DNA of 63,305 nt from an uncultured Pseudomonadota bacterium (GTDB lineage: Bacteria > Pseudomonadota > Alphaproteobacteria > RF32 > CAG-239): NCBI GenBank assembly GCA_902793695.1, contig CADBEI010000014.1, positions 1 to 63,305 on the forward strand, read 5' to 3'. Within the stretch, counting starts at the first letter, position 1. Each line of letters starts with the position of its first letter. Position numbers and translations under genes: made by a program. The notes below the pieces were generated by a model, which was not told where the DNA came from, made no database searches, and saw only the letters and a list, made by a program, of their open reading frames with translations. Below are positions 9,191 to 15,755 of this stretch, piece after piece.

Positions 9191-10579
9191 ATGAAAAGAG
9201 AAAATTTTTCGAGCAAATGGGGTTTTATTTTAACCGCTGCCGGTTCCGCTGTCGGTTTGGGAAATATCTGGCGTTTTCCGTATTTGTGCGGACAATACGG
9301 CGGTTTGAGCTTTATTTTGGTGTATCTGTTGATTTTGTTGCTGATCTGCAATCCGTTGATGGTGGCGGAAATTTCCATCGGCCGTACCGCCAAAAGCAAC
9401 TGTATTGATTCTTATAGGCTAATCGGCGAACAAACCGGAATGAAACACTTGGGACTTTGGTCGTTTTTCGGCGGTTGGTTTTCGGCTTTCGGTGTGTTTT
9501 TGTGCCTCTCATTTTATTTTTTGGTGGCAAGCTGGGTGCTGTATTATTTTCTTGAGGCGGTCAGCGGCAAGTTGATGTTGATAAGCCAAAACAATCTTGA
9601 AAACGAGTTTCAATCGTTGACGCAGAACTTTACGATTCAATACAGCAGCGGTTTGATTTTCTTGTTGGCGACGGCTGTTGTGGTTATCGGCGGAGTGCGC
9701 AAAGGCATTGAGAAAACCGGACTTTATCTGATGCCGGTTTTGTTCTTGATATTTATTCTGTTGAGTGTGCGGGCGCTAACCTTAAACGGAGCAGAGAAGG
9801 GGATTGATTTTCTGCTGACGATTGATAAGACGCATTTGGGATTTACGGCCGACGGTTTCCGTTGGACGCCGCTGTTTAAAACCTTTACCGCCGCTTTGGG
9901 ACAGGCCTTTATTTCGCTGTCGCTCGGCTTTGGCATTTTGTTGGTTTACGGCTCCTATTTTTCGCCGCGGGAGAATTTGTTTAAGTCGGTGCGCAGTATT
10001 GAATTTTTTGATACGATGGCGGCGCTTTTGAGTGCGATAATCATTATACCGGCAATTTTTTCCGCCGGAATGTCGGCAGAATCCGGTCCGGGGCTGACGT
10101 TTATCAGCCTGCCTTTAGTCTTTCAACAATTAAACGGAGGACACTTCTGGGCATTGGCTTTTTATTTGCTGCTGATGTTGGCGACCGTAACTTCGACGGT
10201 TTCGCTGTTTGAAATGCCGACCAATTTGTTTATTGATAAGCTGAAAGTTTCGCGTTTTACGGCGGCTTTGTTGGTAATGCTGATTTCCGGCTTGGGCTTT
10301 ACGGCAGTAACGGCCTCATTTTCCGGCCTGTTAGATTGGAAGATTTTCGGACGCGATTTGTTCACGTTTGCCGATTGGCTGGCCTCGACATATACGGCGA
10401 CGATTGTATCGCTGACGATGGCGCTGTTTGTGGGCTATAAGGCGATGAAACCGATTATCCATAACATTCGCCGCAGTGCACACGTATCGAGCGGTTTTAC
10501 CCGTTATTTTCTGGTAACATTGCGCTATATTGCTCCGCTCGGATTGGGCTTGCTTTTGATAATGGCCGTGTTTAACTGA
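9191..10579 (+). CDS. sodium-dependent neurotransmitter:sodium symporter (SNF/NSS) family transporter
   Basis: 'GSAVGLGNIWRFPYLCGQYGG' NSS signature, with about 11-12 TM segments. Confidence 0.9.
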   Translation: MKRENFSSKWGFILTAAGSAVGLGNIWRFPYLCGQYGGLSFILVYLLILLLICNPLMVAEISIGRTAKSNCIDSYRLIGEQTGMKHLGLWSFFGGWFSAFGVFLCLSFYFLVASWVLYYFLEAVSGKLMLISQNNLENEFQSLTQNFTIQYSSGLIFLLATAVVVIGGVRKGIEKTGLYLMPVLFLIFILLSVRALTLNGAEKGIDFLLTIDKTHLGFTADGFRWTPLFKTFTAALGQAFISLSLGFGILLVYGSYFSPRENLFKSVRSIEFFDTMAALLSAIIIIPAIFSAGMSAESGPGLTFISLPLVFQQLNGGHFWALAFYLLLMLATVTSTVSLFEMPTNLFIDKLKVSRFTAALLVMLISGLGFTAVTASFSGLLDWKIFGRDLFTFADWLASTYTATIVSLTMALFVGYKAMKPIIHNIRRSAHVSSGFTRYFLVTLRYIAPLGLGLLLIMAVFN

Positions 10580-10614
10580 GTGCGGTTTATCCGGATATTT
10601 TACTCATATAAAAA

Positions 10615-10637
10615 AAGGCTCTCCACCGAGAGCCTTA
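10615..10637. terminator. hairpin after the SNF transporter gene (bidirectional appearance)
   Basis: Stem aggctctc/gagagcct with loop cacc. An A-run lies upstream, which gives a T-run on the minus strand. The T-tract on the plus strand is poor. Confidence 0.5.
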
Positions 10638-10649
10638 AATTGTATTATG

Positions 10650-10709
10650 TTGATACAAAAAAATATGCAGCTTAAAAATGTTGCAAAAAAAATTTTAGTT
10701 TGTTATTCT
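10650..10709 (+). promoter_or_regulatory. two tandem sigma70-like promoter candidates
   Basis: TTGATA (10650) with a 17-nt spacer and TAAAAA (10673). TTGCAA (10681) with a 17-nt spacer and TATTCT (10704). Confidence 0.4.
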
Positions 10710-10715
10710 AATTTC

Positions 10716-10983
10716 AGCCGAAATTTTCGGTTAGTACCTAAATAAAAAGGTGCGGGCTGTCGTAAGCCTATATTGGTATCGGTGTTAGGGTATAACATCG
10801 TTAAGTTGTCGGTTATTTGTAGCAACCGACGGCAAATATATCCCCGATTCATAGCAATATGGTCGGGGAGCTTTTAGCGTATGTCCAAAAATCACAAGTG
10901 GTTTGAAAGGCTAAAAGAATCATTGATACCAATATGATTTACGAACTCTCCGACCACCTTATTTATTTAAGGTGGATTTTTTT
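10716..10983 (+). ncRNA. unclassified hairpin-rich structured RNA, possibly a cis-regulatory leader of the downstream islet
   Basis: An 11-bp perfect long-range helix (10770-10780 with 10925-10935) extends to 16 bp with G-U pairs. It encloses three hairpins: 10808-10830, 10841-10869, and 10871-10878 with 10910-10917. An alternative 10-bp pairing joins 10861-10870 to 10946-10955. An 8-bp terminator (10954-10961 with 10968-10975) plus T-run ends 24 nt before the next start codon. Confidence 0.45.
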
Positions 10984-11006
10984 ATGGTGTGAAAGGGGAT
11001 ACGATT

Positions 11007-11699
11007 ATGAGTAATAGTGAAGAAATAAAAAAATTTCTACAGGAAGAAATAGAGCAGATGCAACAATCTATAGGCGGGGTAAAACATAATAATTACTACT
11101 ATAATGATAGTGATAATCAATGTTATTATGAAGGAGTAGATACCGACGATAGAGATTGTTCTTATTATGAAGATGCTTACTATAATATAATTGATATGAT
11201 TGATAGACAGTATGAAGAAATGGAAGATGCATATTATGATTTGGAAGAGTTTTATGCAAATCAAGAATTTTTAATAGAGCCAGTGAAAACAGAATTGCAA
11301 AAAGCAAAAGAATTCAGAATGTCTCAAGAATATCAAAAAGCCATTGCTATATGTGATGATTTACTTAAGAAAAATGAAAATAATCGTTATGCGGTTGACT
11401 TAAAAATAGCTGCTCTTGGAGATATAGGTAGTCCTGAAGCTTACAATTTAGCAATTTTTTATATGAAAAAATATGCACGTAAATTAGATTATATACACAC
11501 AATGTTTGGTTTATTGCAAAAAATGCATTCTAGAAAGGATGAATTCATCAAAGCTCTTTATAAATATTGTCCTGAATGTCTCGAAGTCTATGTAGAAAAC
11601 TTAGGAGAGAATAATCCGAAGCGAACATATCTGAAAGAATTGATGAGGTTAGTAAATAAATCTCAAATCAATAATCTAACCAACCCCGAAGGAGACTAA
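11007..11699 (+). CDS. hypothetical protein (acidic Tyr/Asp-rich N-terminus, helical-repeat-like C-terminus)
   Basis: ORF in an AT-rich islet. ATG at 11007 follows RBS gaaagggga. Codon usage differs from the neighbouring genes. Confidence 0.6.
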   Translation: MSNSEEIKKFLQEEIEQMQQSIGGVKHNNYYYNDSDNQCYYEGVDTDDRDCSYYEDAYYNIIDMIDRQYEEMEDAYYDLEEFYANQEFLIEPVKTELQKAKEFRMSQEYQKAIAICDDLLKKNENNRYAVDLKIAALGDIGSPEAYNLAIFYMKKYARKLDYIHTMFGLLQKMHSRKDEFIKALYKYCPECLEVYVENLGENNPKRTYLKELMRLVNKSQINNLTNPEGD

Positions 11700-11700
11700 A

Positions 11701-12606
11701 ATGAAGAAAATTACAGTGATTATTGCTAGTATGGCGGCAATTTTATGTATCGGCGGCATCGGTGCTTATGCATATATGAACAGCAACACATTTTTAATCA
11801 ACAAATATATCAAAACATGCTCGGTAGAAGCACCAAATTCACCTGATTATTGCAAATGCAAAGCATATTTTAACAGTGAATATAATAAGGATATATTCAA
11901 ACAATTGGCTTATGCCGATAAAGTAGCGCATAGCGGAATAATAAGTTCTCTCCCTTTGGATAAAAAAGATGCTTATTATAAGCAAGTAAGCCGTTGCTAT
12001 CATTATTTGAGTGATGACGATTATTTGGCAAATTTTGAATATCCGTTTTCTAAATCAGAAGAATGCGTCAAAGAAGCATTTTATAAAATGCCACAATATC
12101 AACGCTGGTATATTAAAACGCATAACAAAGATGAAAATGACAGTAAGTTAGTGAAAATTGGTAATTTCTACTCGATATTAACTACTAAATGCTTGAAGAA
12201 ATATGATTCCGATGAAGAATATAAAAAATATCTCGTATATAATTATTTTTTGGAAAATAATGGCTTACCGAATGGCAGTTTTGAAAAATGTATCAACCAA
12301 TTATCTCGTGAAGAAATGGAAGCATATAATGAGAATGACATAAAAGCCCTTATAAAGGTTGAGGATTGCATATTCTCCGAATATAGCGTAGATGAAATTA
12401 TTTCAACAACAGCCAAGGCGAAAATTATGCTTATGGAAGAAAATGCAAAAAAGAAAATGAGTGACTACGGAAAAAACATCATACGCAAAAAAGTTCTTAA
12501 ATGTATGGAAGATAAAATCAGCAAATTATCAAAAGAAGAATTACAAAAATTTAAGGATAATGCACCTGATTCTGAAATTTTGCAAAGTTGTATTGATGAA
12601 AATTAA
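11701..12606 (+). CDS. hypothetical membrane-anchored, Cys-containing protein
   Basis: N-terminal TM 'ITVIIASMAAILCIGGIGAYAY'. AT-rich, and starts 1 nt after the previous stop codon. Confidence 0.6.
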   Translation: MKKITVIIASMAAILCIGGIGAYAYMNSNTFLINKYIKTCSVEAPNSPDYCKCKAYFNSEYNKDIFKQLAYADKVAHSGIISSLPLDKKDAYYKQVSRCYHYLSDDDYLANFEYPFSKSEECVKEAFYKMPQYQRWYIKTHNKDENDSKLVKIGNFYSILTTKCLKKYDSDEEYKKYLVYNYFLENNGLPNGSFEKCINQLSREEMEAYNENDIKALIKVEDCIFSEYSVDEIISTTAKAKIMLMEENAKKKMSDYGKNIIRKKVLKCMEDKISKLSKEELQKFKDNAPDSEILQSCIDEN

Positions 12607-12611
12607 ATATT

Positions 12612-12645
12612 AGCCCCGTACCTCTTCTGGTACGGGGCTGTTTTG
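12612..12645. terminator. intrinsic terminator between convergent genes
   Basis: 11-bp perfect stem agccccgtacc/ggtacggggct, then gttttgtg. Confidence 0.75.
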
Positions 12646-12662
12646 TGCAATGACGGACAATA

Positions 12663-13208
12663 TTATTTTTGTATATCTGCCAGAACTTTCATCGAAACAA
12701 TAACGTCCGGATTTGTAACCGTACCGTTGTCGGCCGGATCGCCACGTTTAATGTTGTCTACAAATTCCATACCTTTGATAACCTGTCCCCAAACGGTGTA
12801 TTGACCGTCCAGAAAACCGGCATCCTTAAAGCAGATAAAGAACTGGCTGTCGGCAGAATCCGGATTGGCGGCTCTGGCCATCGAAACCGTGCCGCGTCCG
12901 TGGTGCTTGTTGTTAAATTCGGCCTTGAGGTTTTGCCCGCTGCCGCCGGTACCGTTACCGCGCGGGTCGCCGGTTTGCGCCATAAATCCGTCAATCACGC
13001 GGTGGAATTTTAAGCCGTCGTAAAAGCCCTGACGTACCAGTTCCTTAATGCGCGCCACATGATTCGGTGCCACATCCGGATATGTTTGAATATAAACATC
13101 GCCGTCTTTGAGTTTAAGCACAATCACGTCTTCCGGATTAACCTCTTGCGCCGAGGTGTTGAAAGAGGCTAAAAATAGCGCCATACAAGCAAGTAGAAGT
13201 TTTTTCAT
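12663..13208 (-). CDS. ppiA: periplasmic cyclophilin-type peptidyl-prolyl isomerase
   Basis: 'FHRVIDGFMAQTGDP.GNGTGG', 'GTVSMARAANPDSADSQFFI', plus a signal peptide. Confidence 0.92.
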   Translation of the reverse strand: MKKLLLACMALFLASFNTSAQEVNPEDVIVLKLKDGDVYIQTYPDVAPNHVARIKELVRQGFYDGLKFHRVIDGFMAQTGDPRGNGTGGSGQNLKAEFNNKHHGRGTVSMARAANPDSADSQFFICFKDAGFLDGQYTVWGQVIKGMEFVDNIKRGDPADNGTVTNPDVIVSMKVLADIQK

Positions 13209-13232: not shown

Positions 13233-14981
13233 TTATTGCGGTAAGGATTTTACGCTGAAAAACAGCGGTAAAATCTCGTATTTGCCTTGATGATAATACA
13301 CATAAAGCGGAATGGCGTCGCGTCCGTAAGACGAAAGCGCAGTTCCCAAATCTTCCTGATGTTCGGTTAAATCGGCCACAAATAATGCCACATTATTTTC
13401 TTGCACAAATTCCTTAAATCTTTGACTTTTCAAAATAAATCTCTCATTAAACTGGCAAGTCAAACACCAATCGGCGGTAAAGTCTACAAAAATATTGCGC
13501 CCTTGCTCGTTAAGTTCGGCAATTTTCTCGGCATCAAACGGTTGCCAATCAAGTTCTGTGGTGTCGGCGGCATAAGTATCGGTCATAATTTGCGTATAAA
13601 AAATGGAACCAAGCCAAATCGCCGTAATCAGAATCGGCACGGAGAGAATGATTTTCAGCTTTTGCATCCAAGCTCCCGGCTTCGGCAAAATTCGGTGCAA
13701 AGCCTGCGGAAACATCTCAATCAGAGCATAGGGCAGGGCATAACCGAGCGCTAATGCCGTAAAAATTGCCATAACTTCGGCGTTGGTGCGCATAAAGGCA
13801 TAGCCGATGGCCGCCCCCATAAACGGACCGGCACACGGACTGGCTACCAATACCGCAAAAAATCCGGTGGTAAATTCGTTAAAGCCGGACAGACGATGAA
13901 TGGTATTGCCTGCAAAATTCGGAAAATGCAGAATGTCGGCCATAAATAAAAACAACAGCAAAAATATTATGGACATAATCCCCACAAACCACGATGATTG
14001 CAGTTGAAAACCCCAGCCGATGTTATTGCCTTCGGTTTTCAGCCAAAGCATAATCACTGCCAGAACAATAAATGACAACAGCACTCCGAGCGTGTAGAAA
14101 ACGGCATTTTTATAAGGCGTTATTCCGGTTTGCGGCTGTTTCAAAAGCGTAAATATTTTCAGGCTCAAAATCGGAAACACGCAAGGCATGGCATTGAGAA
14201 TAATGCCGCCGATAAAAGCCAAAATAATCATATACAGCAGAGTATCCGTGAGCGTGCTTTTATATTCTATATCCGCCAAATAAGCATTATTCGGAGTAAT
14301 AATCAGAGCCTGTTTGAGTTGTTGCGGCTTATCCGATTGCCATTTAACGCTTATACCTTCGGCATTCGGCTCGGTTTCAATACTCATTTCATCAATAATA
14401 TCTTTTTTCGTCGGGGCAAAATAGAGAGGTGTTTGCGCATCCATATTCAACTGTAAGCGATTTTCACCGAGCGGGCTGGTTAAGGTTATTTTTTGCGGAA
14501 AAGTAGCTTGTGCCCGTTGTTGCATTTCCAGCCATTGTACATCAGGCGATGCCGCGATTTCCGCCATCTTAAAGGTTAGAGATTCCGGCTTGCAAACATC
14601 ATTACATTCCACAAAGCTGAAGGTTATTTCCGCCTTATCGAGATTATCGACCTGCAAAGCATAATAAGCAGTGTTTTCATACAGATATTCGTGCATAATG
14701 TCATAGATAGTGCGCGCCACCGGAATTGATTGAGCCGTTACTTCAATTTTGGAATTGATAGCCGTGACTTCGGTAGGTTGACCTACATCGCCGGGATTGC
14801 TCCACGAAATATGCCAATCCGGCTGCATCACAAACTCGGCCAACACCTTATCTTCGCCGTTATGATAAAGGCGGATGGTGGTATTTTCCGTACTTTTAAT
14901 CGCGTCATCTGCGTATGCGGCAGAAAAACTCAACAAACCATATAGAAGCGCAAAAACCAGACATATCTTATTTTTCATCAT
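13233..14981 (-). CDS. dsbD: DsbD/ScsB-family thiol:disulfide interchange (protein-disulfide reductase) protein
   Basis: N-domain 'ECNDVCKP', membrane cysteines 'MPCVFP' and 'ASPCAGP', C-terminal thioredoxin 'WCLTCQ'. Confidence 0.85.
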   Translation of the reverse strand: MMKNKICLVFALLYGLLSFSAAYADDAIKSTENTTIRLYHNGEDKVLAEFVMQPDWHISWSNPGDVGQPTEVTAINSKIEVTAQSIPVARTIYDIMHEYLYENTAYYALQVDNLDKAEITFSFVECNDVCKPESLTFKMAEIAASPDVQWLEMQQRAQATFPQKITLTSPLGENRLQLNMDAQTPLYFAPTKKDIIDEMSIETEPNAEGISVKWQSDKPQQLKQALIITPNNAYLADIEYKSTLTDTLLYMIILAFIGGIILNAMPCVFPILSLKIFTLLKQPQTGITPYKNAVFYTLGVLLSFIVLAVIMLWLKTEGNNIGWGFQLQSSWFVGIMSIIFLLLFLFMADILHFPNFAGNTIHRLSGFNEFTTGFFAVLVASPCAGPFMGAAIGYAFMRTNAEVMAIFTALALGYALPYALIEMFPQALHRILPKPGAWMQKLKIILSVPILITAIWLGSIFYTQIMTDTYAADTTELDWQPFDAEKIAELNEQGRNIFVDFTADWCLTCQFNERFILKSQRFKEFVQENNVALFVADLTEHQEDLGTALSSYGRDAIPLYVYYHQGKYEILPLFFSVKSLPQ

Positions 14982-15104: not shown

Positions 15105-15755
15105 TCAATAAAAGAAAAATTCAAGATAGTTGTCTTTTATGTCGGAACACGCGTGAGCGGCTGCCTCTTTGAGCATAATTCCGTCTTTTGCACAATGAAT
15201 GGCCGAACCCATCCTGTTTATCGGAGTCGGAATACAGTTATTTTGCCGCAATTCCTGCGGAGCCGGAATGTTGATAACCACACCTATATAGCCGGTATCA
15301 TTTGTTGCATCCCACGGCGTGGTGGCCAATTCGATACAAGCCGGTTTCGGAATAAAGTCATAACGGAGGGCAAAAGCCGCTTTGTCGCCTTCTTTTAATT
15401 TATCGCTGTTGCGAATCTTTAAGCTGCCTTTGAACGGGTTTTTAAAGGCATACGGTTTGATAATATTACCTTTGGCATCGCGTATAAGATATTCCGGAGG
15501 AATAATATCGGCACCCACCATAACCGAGTTAACATCGGATTCATCGCCTCCCATGCCGCTGTAACTTTTTTGCCCGATGAAAGCCAAACGTATACGGGCA
15601 ATAATATGAGACATCTGGTTTACGGTATTATTAAGTCTGTATTTCATCATGGCTTTGGAATAACCGGCTATACCACCGACGGAAAGTACGCCGATTATGG
15701 CCAGTACACCTAGCATTTCTATCATCGAACGACCGATTTGCTGGCTTTTTTGCAT
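15105..15755 (-). CDS. type IV pilin-like (prepilin N-terminal cleavage/methylation domain) protein
   Basis: 'GRSMIEMLGVLAIIGVLSVGGIAGY' has a class III signal with Glu at +5. Cysteine pairs in the C-terminal part. Confidence 0.7.
   Translation of the reverse strand: MQKSQQIGRSMIEMLGVLAIIGVLSVGGIAGYSKAMMKYRLNNTVNQMSHIIARIRLAFIGQKSYSGMGGDESDVNSVMVGADIIPPEYLIRDAKGNIIKPYAFKNPFKGSLKIRNSDKLKEGDKAAFALRYDFIPKPACIELATTPWDATNDTGYIGVVINIPAPQELRQNNCIPTPINRMGSAIHCAKDGIMLKEAAAHACSDIKDNYLEFFFY

Follow-up and report, generated by a model that had tools for sequence, protein, structure and literature searches.

A family of large structured leader RNAs, putatively acting by conditional termination, in front of accessory genes of uncultured gut and rumen Alphaproteobacteria

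The stretch of DNA analysed here, referred to below as the window, comprises 63,305 nucleotides (nt) of an uncultured rumen alphaproteobacterium (GenBank assembly GCA_902793695.1, contig CADBEI010000014.1, positions 1 to 63,305). It contains an SNF-family transporter gene at 9191-10579, and the next open reading frame (ORF), p230, begins with an ATG at 11007; the gap between the two genes is occupied by a promoter, a structured RNA and an intrinsic terminator (Table 1). An earlier inspection of the letters alone (the sequence-only reading) had described this gap as an unclassified multi-hairpin RNA element, and every feature that it listed was recovered at the position given. The analyses reported here indicate, with moderate confidence, that positions 10716-10983 are one copy of a family of cis-acting leader RNAs of about 250-270 nt, which would control transcription by conditional termination and which is absent from Rfam.

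Folding of positions 10712-10985 of the plus strand gave a minimum free energy (MFE) of -96.7 kcal/mol, compared with -60.5 +/- 4.6 kcal/mol in 200 dinucleotide shuffles (z = -7.9), none of which folded as well; on the minus strand the fold is weaker by about 26 kcal/mol. The long-range helix of 11 bp already noticed by eye, between ATATTGGTATC (10770-10780) and GATACCAATAT (10925-10935), was found as a perfect inverted repeat, and in the MFE fold the corresponding stack consists of 12 bp plus 6+2+3 bp. All three hairpins said to be enclosed by it are present in this fold (10805-10833, 10841-10869 and 10871-10917), together with a fourth that had been overlooked, at 10781-10787/10793-10799. 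The loop of the latter hairpin, P2, reads GGGUAUA (10788-10794) and is complementary to UAUAUCC (10837-10843), forming a pseudoknot candidate. On the 3′ side, the last two C residues of the nearly invariant segment ACUCUCCGACC overlap the base of the terminator stem; the terminator was recovered as described, its stem being followed by ATTTTTTT to 10983, and its end lies 24 nt before the ATG. As to the two -35/-10 candidates proposed for the promoter, the pair TTGCAA-17-TATTCT is favoured by the comparative data, while a consensus scan alone did not rise above background; the favoured pair would place the start of leader transcription near 10716.

Table 1. Features of the leader and of the surrounding islet in the window (positions of the whole stretch; L numbers designate the loci used for comparison).
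Feature	Position	Strand	Basis or remark
Hairpin at the left islet border	10615-10636	.	G+C-rich; U-run on the minus strand; terminator scan
Sigma-70-type promoter, TTGCAA (10681-10686), 17 nt, TATTCT (10704-10709)	10681-10709	+	Kept in L005, L064 and L008
H1, variable 5′ hairpin	10716-10732	+	7 bp in MFE fold; 5 of 6 pairs covary in the family
H2 hairpin (GUACCU...AGGUGC)	10734-10753	+	MFE fold and family helix 2; proposed role as anti-antiterminator
P1	GGG 10754-10756 with UCC 10949-10951	+	MFE fold; compensatory changes in the diverged L032a
P1b	10759-10766 with 10938-10946	+	MFE fold; 6 of 7 pairs covary
P1c, hypervariable, contains the perfect 11-mer	10769-10780 with 10925-10936	+	7 of 8 pairs covary
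P2 hairpin	10781-10799 (10781-10787/10793-10799)	+	MFE fold; family helix 7
P3 hairpin, variable, dispensable	10805-10833 (10805-10814/10824-10833)	+	All 7 pairs covary; absent in L032a and L032b
J3/4 and P4	10837-10870; UCCCCGAU (10841-10848) with GUCGGGGA (10862-10869)	+	Nearly invariant; 6 of 8 pairs never vary
P5/P5b hairpin, conserved internal loop GUAUGUYCA / AAAG	10871-10917 (10871-10878/10910-10917)	+	7 of 8 and 3 of 4 pairs covary
3′ strands of P1c, P1b and P1	10925-10955, inside the nearly invariant ACUCUCCGACC	+	Alignment; MFE fold
Intrinsic terminator, CCACCUUA / UAAGGUGG, then A U7	10954-10983; stem 10954-10961/10968-10975	+	Terminator scan; family helix 12 covaries
p230, 230 amino acids, first gene of the operon, with Shine-Dalgarno-like AAAGGGGA	10993-11699, ATG 11007	+	ORF
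p301, 301 amino acids, second gene of the operon; hydrophobic N-terminus, Cys-rich	11701-12606	+	ORF
Terminator-like hairpin closing the islet, AGCCCCGUACC...GGUACGGGGCU, then GUUUUG	12612-12645	+	Direct sequence reading

The first inspection could assign the element to no RNA family, and the database comparison agrees: the whole window gave no match at the gathering score of Rfam 15, so that the lysine, cobalamin, T-box, c-di-GMP-I/II, ydaO, tmRNA, RNase P, 6S, SRP, EAR and JUMPstart families are all without a match. With the limit relaxed to E <= 10 in the region 10300-11300, only terminator-type or low-scoring noise appeared, the best score being 23 bits against a threshold of 80 bits; 11 other members of the family likewise gave no Rfam match on the element. 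ARAGORN called no tRNA or tmRNA in the window, and the impression that the 3′ end resembles a tRNA acceptor with CCA is left without support. A description of the motif was not found in the searchable literature, and the supplements of Fremin and Bhatt that were consulted do not contain it.

Homologues proved abundant in both metagenomes and genomes. A motif scan, whose query consisted of the segments conserved between the window and locus L021, returned 98 metagenome stretches from rumen and human gut and one IMG/VR contig (L072 is a GC-rich chance match); the element also occurs in GTDB genomes, and an nhmmer profile search gave 119 copies in 106 loci. In L005, from the same species as the window, SNF is 99.8% and p230 99.6% identical, yet the DNA identity of the element does not exceed 90%; its differences are grouped in loops and in P1c, where four consecutive base pairs are exchanged compensatorily. 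At a greater distance, the SNF of L021 is only 74% identical, and a recognisable element follows the SNF gene and precedes a DUF1796 gene; its P1c and terminator have wholly different sequences with the pairing retained. Two diverged copies, 10 kb apart and both devoid of P3, lie on a contig from a metagenome-assembled genome (MAG), L032, where each precedes a pilin paralogue (L032:3328-4153 and 13768-14628).

Covariation was assessed on an alignment (A3) of 45 representatives with less than 93% mutual identity, and it is strong. RNAalifold predicted 68 pairs in 12 helices, 44 of which pairs show compensatory double changes. Standard pairs fill 94.3% of the cells, compared with 80.4 +/- 0.4% after shuffling and with 40-48% when the partners are slid by 1-3 columns; double-change cells number 452 versus 145 +/- 11 in the shuffles, and the covariation score is 0.453 versus about 0.09 in the slid controls. 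None of 500 shuffles matched any of the five measures and the slid controls were all exceeded too; shuffle statistics overstate significance for related sequences, and the slid-partner controls, which are fairer, also give a clear result. Covarying helices are H1, H2, P1b, P1c, P2, P3, P5, P5b and the terminator. P1 and P4 hardly vary, and L032a keeps both despite changes, with G-C to A-U and A-U to G-C exchanges in P1 and with wobble pairs in P4. Many of the exchanges are between G-U and A-U or G-C, which identifies the plus strand as the transcribed one. The predicted fold is a five-way junction with a hypervariable closing helix.

The arms of this closing helix, P1c, pair in 88% of the cells; among sequence pairs that are 93-97% identical elsewhere the mean identity of P1c is 80%, and its column entropy is 1.17 versus 0.69 in the remaining columns. 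Between near-identical copies P1c (A3 columns 168-181 and 350-359) changes fast, both arms together. Gene conversion between paralogues, tuning of the strength of the switch and avoidance of cross-pairing are possible causes of this speed. In the junction, the P2 loop reads GGAUAUA in the family (GGGUAUA in the window), the members with a shorter GGAUAA have UUAUCC on the opposite side, and G-U variants also occur; paired cells amount to 96%, versus 15-75% in the slid controls. The P2 loop and the junction therefore probably form a pseudoknot, with few independent changes behind it.

The RNA is found in a constant layout. Hexamers resembling TTGACA and TATAAT stand at a fixed distance upstream of it in nearly all of the 45 members, a short G+C-rich hairpin with a U-run ends every aligned member, and a co-oriented ORF, usually with a Shine-Dalgarno sequence, is present in 99 of 101 loci, at a median distance of 26 nt from the U-run (interquartile range 15-35; 24 in the window) and with the start 9-56 nt after it in most loci. 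Promoter, structured domain and terminator are conserved as a unit with a gene close behind it, and the logic of a riboswitch or attenuator, suggested beforehand from mutually exclusive helices beside a terminator, fits this arrangement. Since the space between U-run and gene is too small for a promoter, the downstream genes would be transcribed by read-through; this need for read-through is the main argument for a cis-regulatory role.

The proteins encoded downstream belong to 30 unrelated families. Autotransporters with PMP repeats account for 36 loci, prepilin-like proteins for 12, SNase-type nucleases for 6 and PLD-type nucleases for 3; other families include a BspA-type leucine-rich repeat protein, Bor, lipoproteins, GT2 and capsule glycosyltransferases and a NAD-dependent sugar epimerase, as well as DUF805 membrane proteins, an ankyrin protein, DUF1796, an EcoRI-like methylase, a helix-turn-helix (HTH) regulator and several unknowns, p230 among them. 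The common theme is exported, surface or accessory function, and it is ecological rather than metabolic. Some members (18 of 48 with z < -1) also show complementarity between the 3′ strand of P1/P1b/P1c and the region in which the downstream gene starts, which suggests that a translational layer may be added in these copies. Attenuation through a leader peptide was rejected, since conservation is lacking at the sole in-frame AUG (AUGGUCGGGG...) and the covariation in P5 would alter the peptide.

Nearly identical leaders precede different genes on separate contigs (the window, L064 and L145), and tandem or multiple copies occur in L056 (three), L148 (two), L067/L112 and L083. The family appears to be a portable promoter-leader-terminator module placed before accessory genes of uncultured gut and rumen Alphaproteobacteria. 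In L056:1-800 every tandem unit repeats promoter, leader, terminator, ribosome-binding site and the first codons of the downstream gene, and L112:7074-7903 additionally contains two truncated, GC-richer partial copies. In L132:4294-4649 the 5′ half of one leader allele is joined to the 3′ half of another (as compared with L061, L142 and L076), and the P1c arms are not complementary; this sequence arose either naturally, by recombination between copies, or during assembly, as a chimera at a repeated element.

The human-gut contigs carry flanking genes for CtrA and superoxide dismutase, with names from Alphaproteobacteria or 'Acetobacter sp.' MAGs on more than 1000 contigs, and relatives of the SNF gene are found in 38 GTDB contigs labelled Alphaproteobacteria, Rhodospirillaceae or 'Azospirillum sp.' MAGs. 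Copies are also present on two virome scaffolds named 'UNVERIFIED Bacteriophage sp.' (L151, MT835859.1 8527-24642, where the downstream gene encodes an XRE-like HTH regulator, and MT837206.1) and in L150 (IMGVR_UViG_3300029734_000183). An origin from phages or plasmids was considered and rejected: there was no plasmid match, no capsid or terminase gene within 16 kb in L151 and no phage hallmark near the copy in L150. The virome copies are probably bacterial DNA in virome data.

In the window the leader stands at the edge of an AT-rich islet, and the suggestion that foreign DNA begins there is borne out by related loci. Downstream of the islet lies PPI, a convergent cyclophilin gene (12663-13208). 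In L009 and L006 the SNF and PPI genes are about 50 nt apart, with only a common hairpin terminator between them; the element and the two AT-rich genes are absent. This shared terminator corresponds to the hairpin at the left islet border of the window, where it now separates SNF from the inserted promoter. The insertion measures about 2.0 kb, has 31% GC and consists of promoter, structured RNA, p230, p301 and the closing terminator. L008 has another insertion of 4.7 kb at the same spot, which has an identical promoter sequence, is devoid of the structured RNA and encodes a 1131-amino-acid UvrD-like helicase and a 362-amino-acid PBP-like protein (L008:9386-14078). The SNF-PPI intergenic spot thus behaves as an insertion hotspot (window 10580-10660 and 12600-12665; L009:9366-9460; L006:1382-1470; L008:9386-14078). 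A tie between the leader and the upstream SNF gene was ruled out, as most SNF loci are without the element and two have SNF directly adjoining PPI.

Neither p230 nor p301 has a match in Pfam, PADLOC, NCBIfam or, by sequence search, the PDB, and only 8 homologues of p230 were found in the database search. Some homologues of p230 have no leader: one, with a p301-like partner, is in L048:2044-6431, after an N6_Mtase/Methylase_S fusion and a 179-amino-acid gene and beside a tRNA gene, and another is in L043:4101-5642, after an RNase_T-like gene. A link of the leader specifically to p230/p301 was ruled out, as p230 homologues exist without it and it precedes 30 unrelated gene families; the p230/p301 pair itself may be a mobile accessory module. 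A retron or defence-system noncoding RNA was also dismissed, given that p230 and p301 have no Pfam or PADLOC match, that neither was recognised as a reverse transcriptase and that the genes downstream of other members are unrelated to reverse transcriptases. A further structured leader is present at L043:3835-4085 (also in L044-L047) and at L019:2349-2655, with an MFE of -79.7 kcal/mol (z = -6.4) and no Rfam match; its terminator ends about 25 nt before the RNase_T-like gene and the p230 homologue, and it has a homologue in another MAG. It may represent a second leader family in the same bacteria. Elsewhere in the window, a PilS/bundlin-like pilin gene (15105-15755, minus strand) has no leader before it.

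At least two conserved pairings are predicted to compete with the terminator. The one proposed by the sequence-only reading, between GGUCGGGGAG (10861-10870) and CUCUCCGACC (10946-10955), does exist, as 10860-10870 and 10946-10956 are complementary at 10 of 11 positions and the terminator adjoins them; it is nearly invariant in the family and L032a keeps it through a G-C to A-U double change. Its formation would abolish P4, P1 and two basal G-C pairs of the terminator, and enforcing it costs 7-19 kcal/mol of predicted stability relative to the terminator state, which qualifies its proposed role as antiterminator. The second pairing involves H2: the 3′ half of this hairpin, together with its loop, can pair with the 5′ half of the terminator and with the terminator loop. 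It extends P1 outward, and in the window, L005 and L021 it runs through both loops despite unrelated sequences. Among the 45 members H2 fits its own terminator better than those of others (mean z -0.9; z < -1 in 16; z = -3.3 for the window). When the nascent RNA is made to end before the 3′ arm of the terminator, the pairing of the H2 3′ half with the terminator 5′ half is predicted in 37 of the 45, whereas 40 of the full-length MFE folds contain H2 and the terminator, a state favoured by 8.4 kcal/mol on average. The H2/terminator alternative thus appears to have more support than GGUCGGGGAG/CUCUCCGACC, both comparatively and by folding.

From the computed structure, conservation, gene linkage and predicted alternative folds we infer a regulatory outcome, its direction and the involvement of an effector as follows. 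Transcription would start at about 10716 from TTGCAA-17-TATTCT, and H2 would be the first helix to form during transcription. A five-way-junction domain (P2-P5) would then be closed by P1/P1b/P1c and probably locked by the pseudoknot between P2 loop and junction, with the 3′ strand of the closing stack, ACUCUCCGACC, leading straight into the short intrinsic terminator. Docking of the domain, probably aided by the pseudoknot and by an effector (a small molecule or a protein) that stabilises the fold, would set the 3′ half of H2 beside the 5′ half of the terminator as the latter emerges. The terminator would then give way to the extended P1 and RNA polymerase would read into p230-p301, GGUCGGGGAG with CUCUCCGACC possibly acting as a second competitor of the terminator. 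If docking fails, H2 and the terminator would persist and an RNA of about 270 nt would be released. The mechanism so described is an ON switch, a direction to which no better than even odds can be given.

Several points weigh against conditional termination by a cis-acting leader or limit parts of this scheme. The family was gathered by a motif that demands the invariant segments, so that the invariance of P4 and of CUCUCCGACC is partly a matter of construction; free of this bias are only the profile search, L032a/b and L151. P4 and the CUCUCCGACC segment are moreover almost invariant, hence most sequences cannot tell the competing pairings apart. The support for the coupling of H2 and terminator is statistical and uneven, being clear in about a third of the members, and both antiterminators come out less stable than the terminator state in the predictions, which implies that switching would be kinetic or effector-driven. 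The window leader shows no special complementarity to its own start region (z = +0.8), and sequestration of that region in this copy is unsupported, though seen in other members. Lastly, the downstream genes have no metabolic theme in common that would indicate a ligand, which is unusual for metabolite riboswitches; their heterogeneity suits a protein-dependent or global signal equally well. That the leader is a small-molecule riboswitch is a tentative proposal, possible and on balance doubtful.

The same heterogeneity bears on a less likely but quite possible rival, in which the leader works as an attenuator that depends on a protein, or as a processive-antitermination element comparable to put, EAR or LoaP-type leaders: it would bind a dedicated regulator or RNA polymerase and license read-through into horizontally acquired surface-protein genes, and no small molecule would be involved. 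Systems of the RfaH, LoaP and EAR type govern comparable gene sets. The accessory, surface and secreted genes found here, which do not form one pathway, agree with such a system, as do the succession of promoter, structured RNA and terminator before the genes and a conserved GGA motif in the P2 loop. However, the inspected loci show no candidate partner gene that recurs next to the leader, and no antitermination family of Rfam matches; direct ligand sensors more typically have a large domain like this one, with its five-way junction, conserved junction nucleotides and probable pseudoknot.

The strong terminator and the promoter of its own, the occurrence in multiple copies (two in one contig), a P1c that diverges faster than the rest and a terminator state that is the predicted ground state could also be accounted for by a free-standing gene for a trans-acting small RNA (sRNA) of about 270 nt, present as several paralogous copies per genome, with P1c giving target or partner specificity and with an incidental position beside the genes. 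Such an sRNA gene is improbable in view of the co-oriented ORF so close behind the U-run in nearly all loci, which leaves the neighbours no room for promoters of their own; the P1c arms pair with each other and are not free, and subsets of leaders are complementary to their own downstream start region. Still less probable, to the point of being very remote, is a feature acting at the DNA level: the element would be a miniature mobile element with inverted repeats, or it would mark the island border as a site of recombination or integration (a tRNA-like attachment site). The position at the left border of a 2-kb AT-rich insert that related genomes lack, the long inverted repeats, the near-identical leaders before different genes and the recombinant appearance of the L132 contig would all be understandable on this basis; but the G-U pairs that take part in the covariation are confined to one strand, the orientation of the element always matches that of the downstream gene, a promoter precedes the element and a terminator follows it, the 63-kb window has no second copy and no tRNA-like call, and no integrase or transposase is annotated among the neighbours. 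Miniature inverted-repeat transposable elements and REP-type repeats were rejected on the same grounds of copy number in the window, strand-specific G-U covariation and fixed orientation. The proposed cis-acting leader is compared below with known systems of this kind.

The lysine riboswitch (L-box, RF00168) and the other large junction riboswitches share with the present RNA a domain of about 200 nt, five helices around one junction and a long-range tertiary pairing; in lysine-type riboswitches the 3′ strand of the closing P1 also leads into an intrinsic terminator directly upstream of the gene, and tandems occasionally occur. However, no covariance-model match to the lysine riboswitch was obtained at any threshold tried, the conserved nucleotides differ, and the downstream genes are not those of lysine or of any single pathway. 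The cobalamin riboswitch is similar in function, being a large junction type on a terminator platform. T-box leaders resemble the present family in having more than 200 nt and multiple helices, in opposing a terminator to an antiterminator stabilised by long-range contacts and in one segment that varies from gene to gene. The leader described here, though, has no T-box sequence, specifier-loop architecture or Rfam match, its variable segments pair mutually, and the genes behind it are not aminoacyl-tRNA or amino-acid genes.

With regard to the genes controlled, closer parallels are found elsewhere. The put elements of HK022, EAR, the LoaP leaders and JUMPstart/ops also place a promoter-proximal RNA element and then a terminator before horizontally acquired surface, polysaccharide or secreted-protein genes; they are small, however, with one or two hairpins or a 12-nt DNA signal against the 12 helices of the present domain, they show no sequence or covariance-model similarity to it, and a gene for a NusG paralogue was not seen nearby. 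The cyclic di-GMP (c-di-GMP) I and II (GEMM) leaders precede genes for pilins, adhesins, secreted proteins and polysaccharides, are sometimes arranged in tandem and act via terminators. The gene set of the present family has a similar flavour, but the RNA is about twice as large, has another architecture and has no Rfam match; a link to c-di-GMP is pure conjecture. On the strength of these comparisons of sequence and predicted fold, the family is placed among the cis-regulatory leader RNAs, a known kind of element, where it would form a new structural class.

A more far-reaching possibility, which is speculative and rather less probable than its negation, is that the family constitutes a new class of large riboswitches, whose core would be a five-way junction together with a pseudoknot and which would sense a global signal, for instance a nucleotide second messenger. 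As a portable cassette in multiple copies it would then co-ordinate the entire set of surface, secretome and accessory genes in a lineage of gut Alphaproteobacteria that is abundant but uncultured, with P1c as a copy-specific tuning or insulating element. Large, intricate and covarying bacterial RNAs of obscure function are rare, and earlier ones have led to new riboswitch ligands or RNA mechanisms. The present leader is common in human-gut and rumen metagenomes, in a lineage without a cultured model, and it precedes adhesins, pilins, secreted nucleases and capsule genes, that is, genes which shape host and community interactions. If the model is true, one RNA fold would provide a handle on the switching of surface repertoires, as well as a regulatory part and an orphan-aptamer target for ligand discovery, and it would explain how AT-rich gene islets may arrive already fitted with conditional expression.

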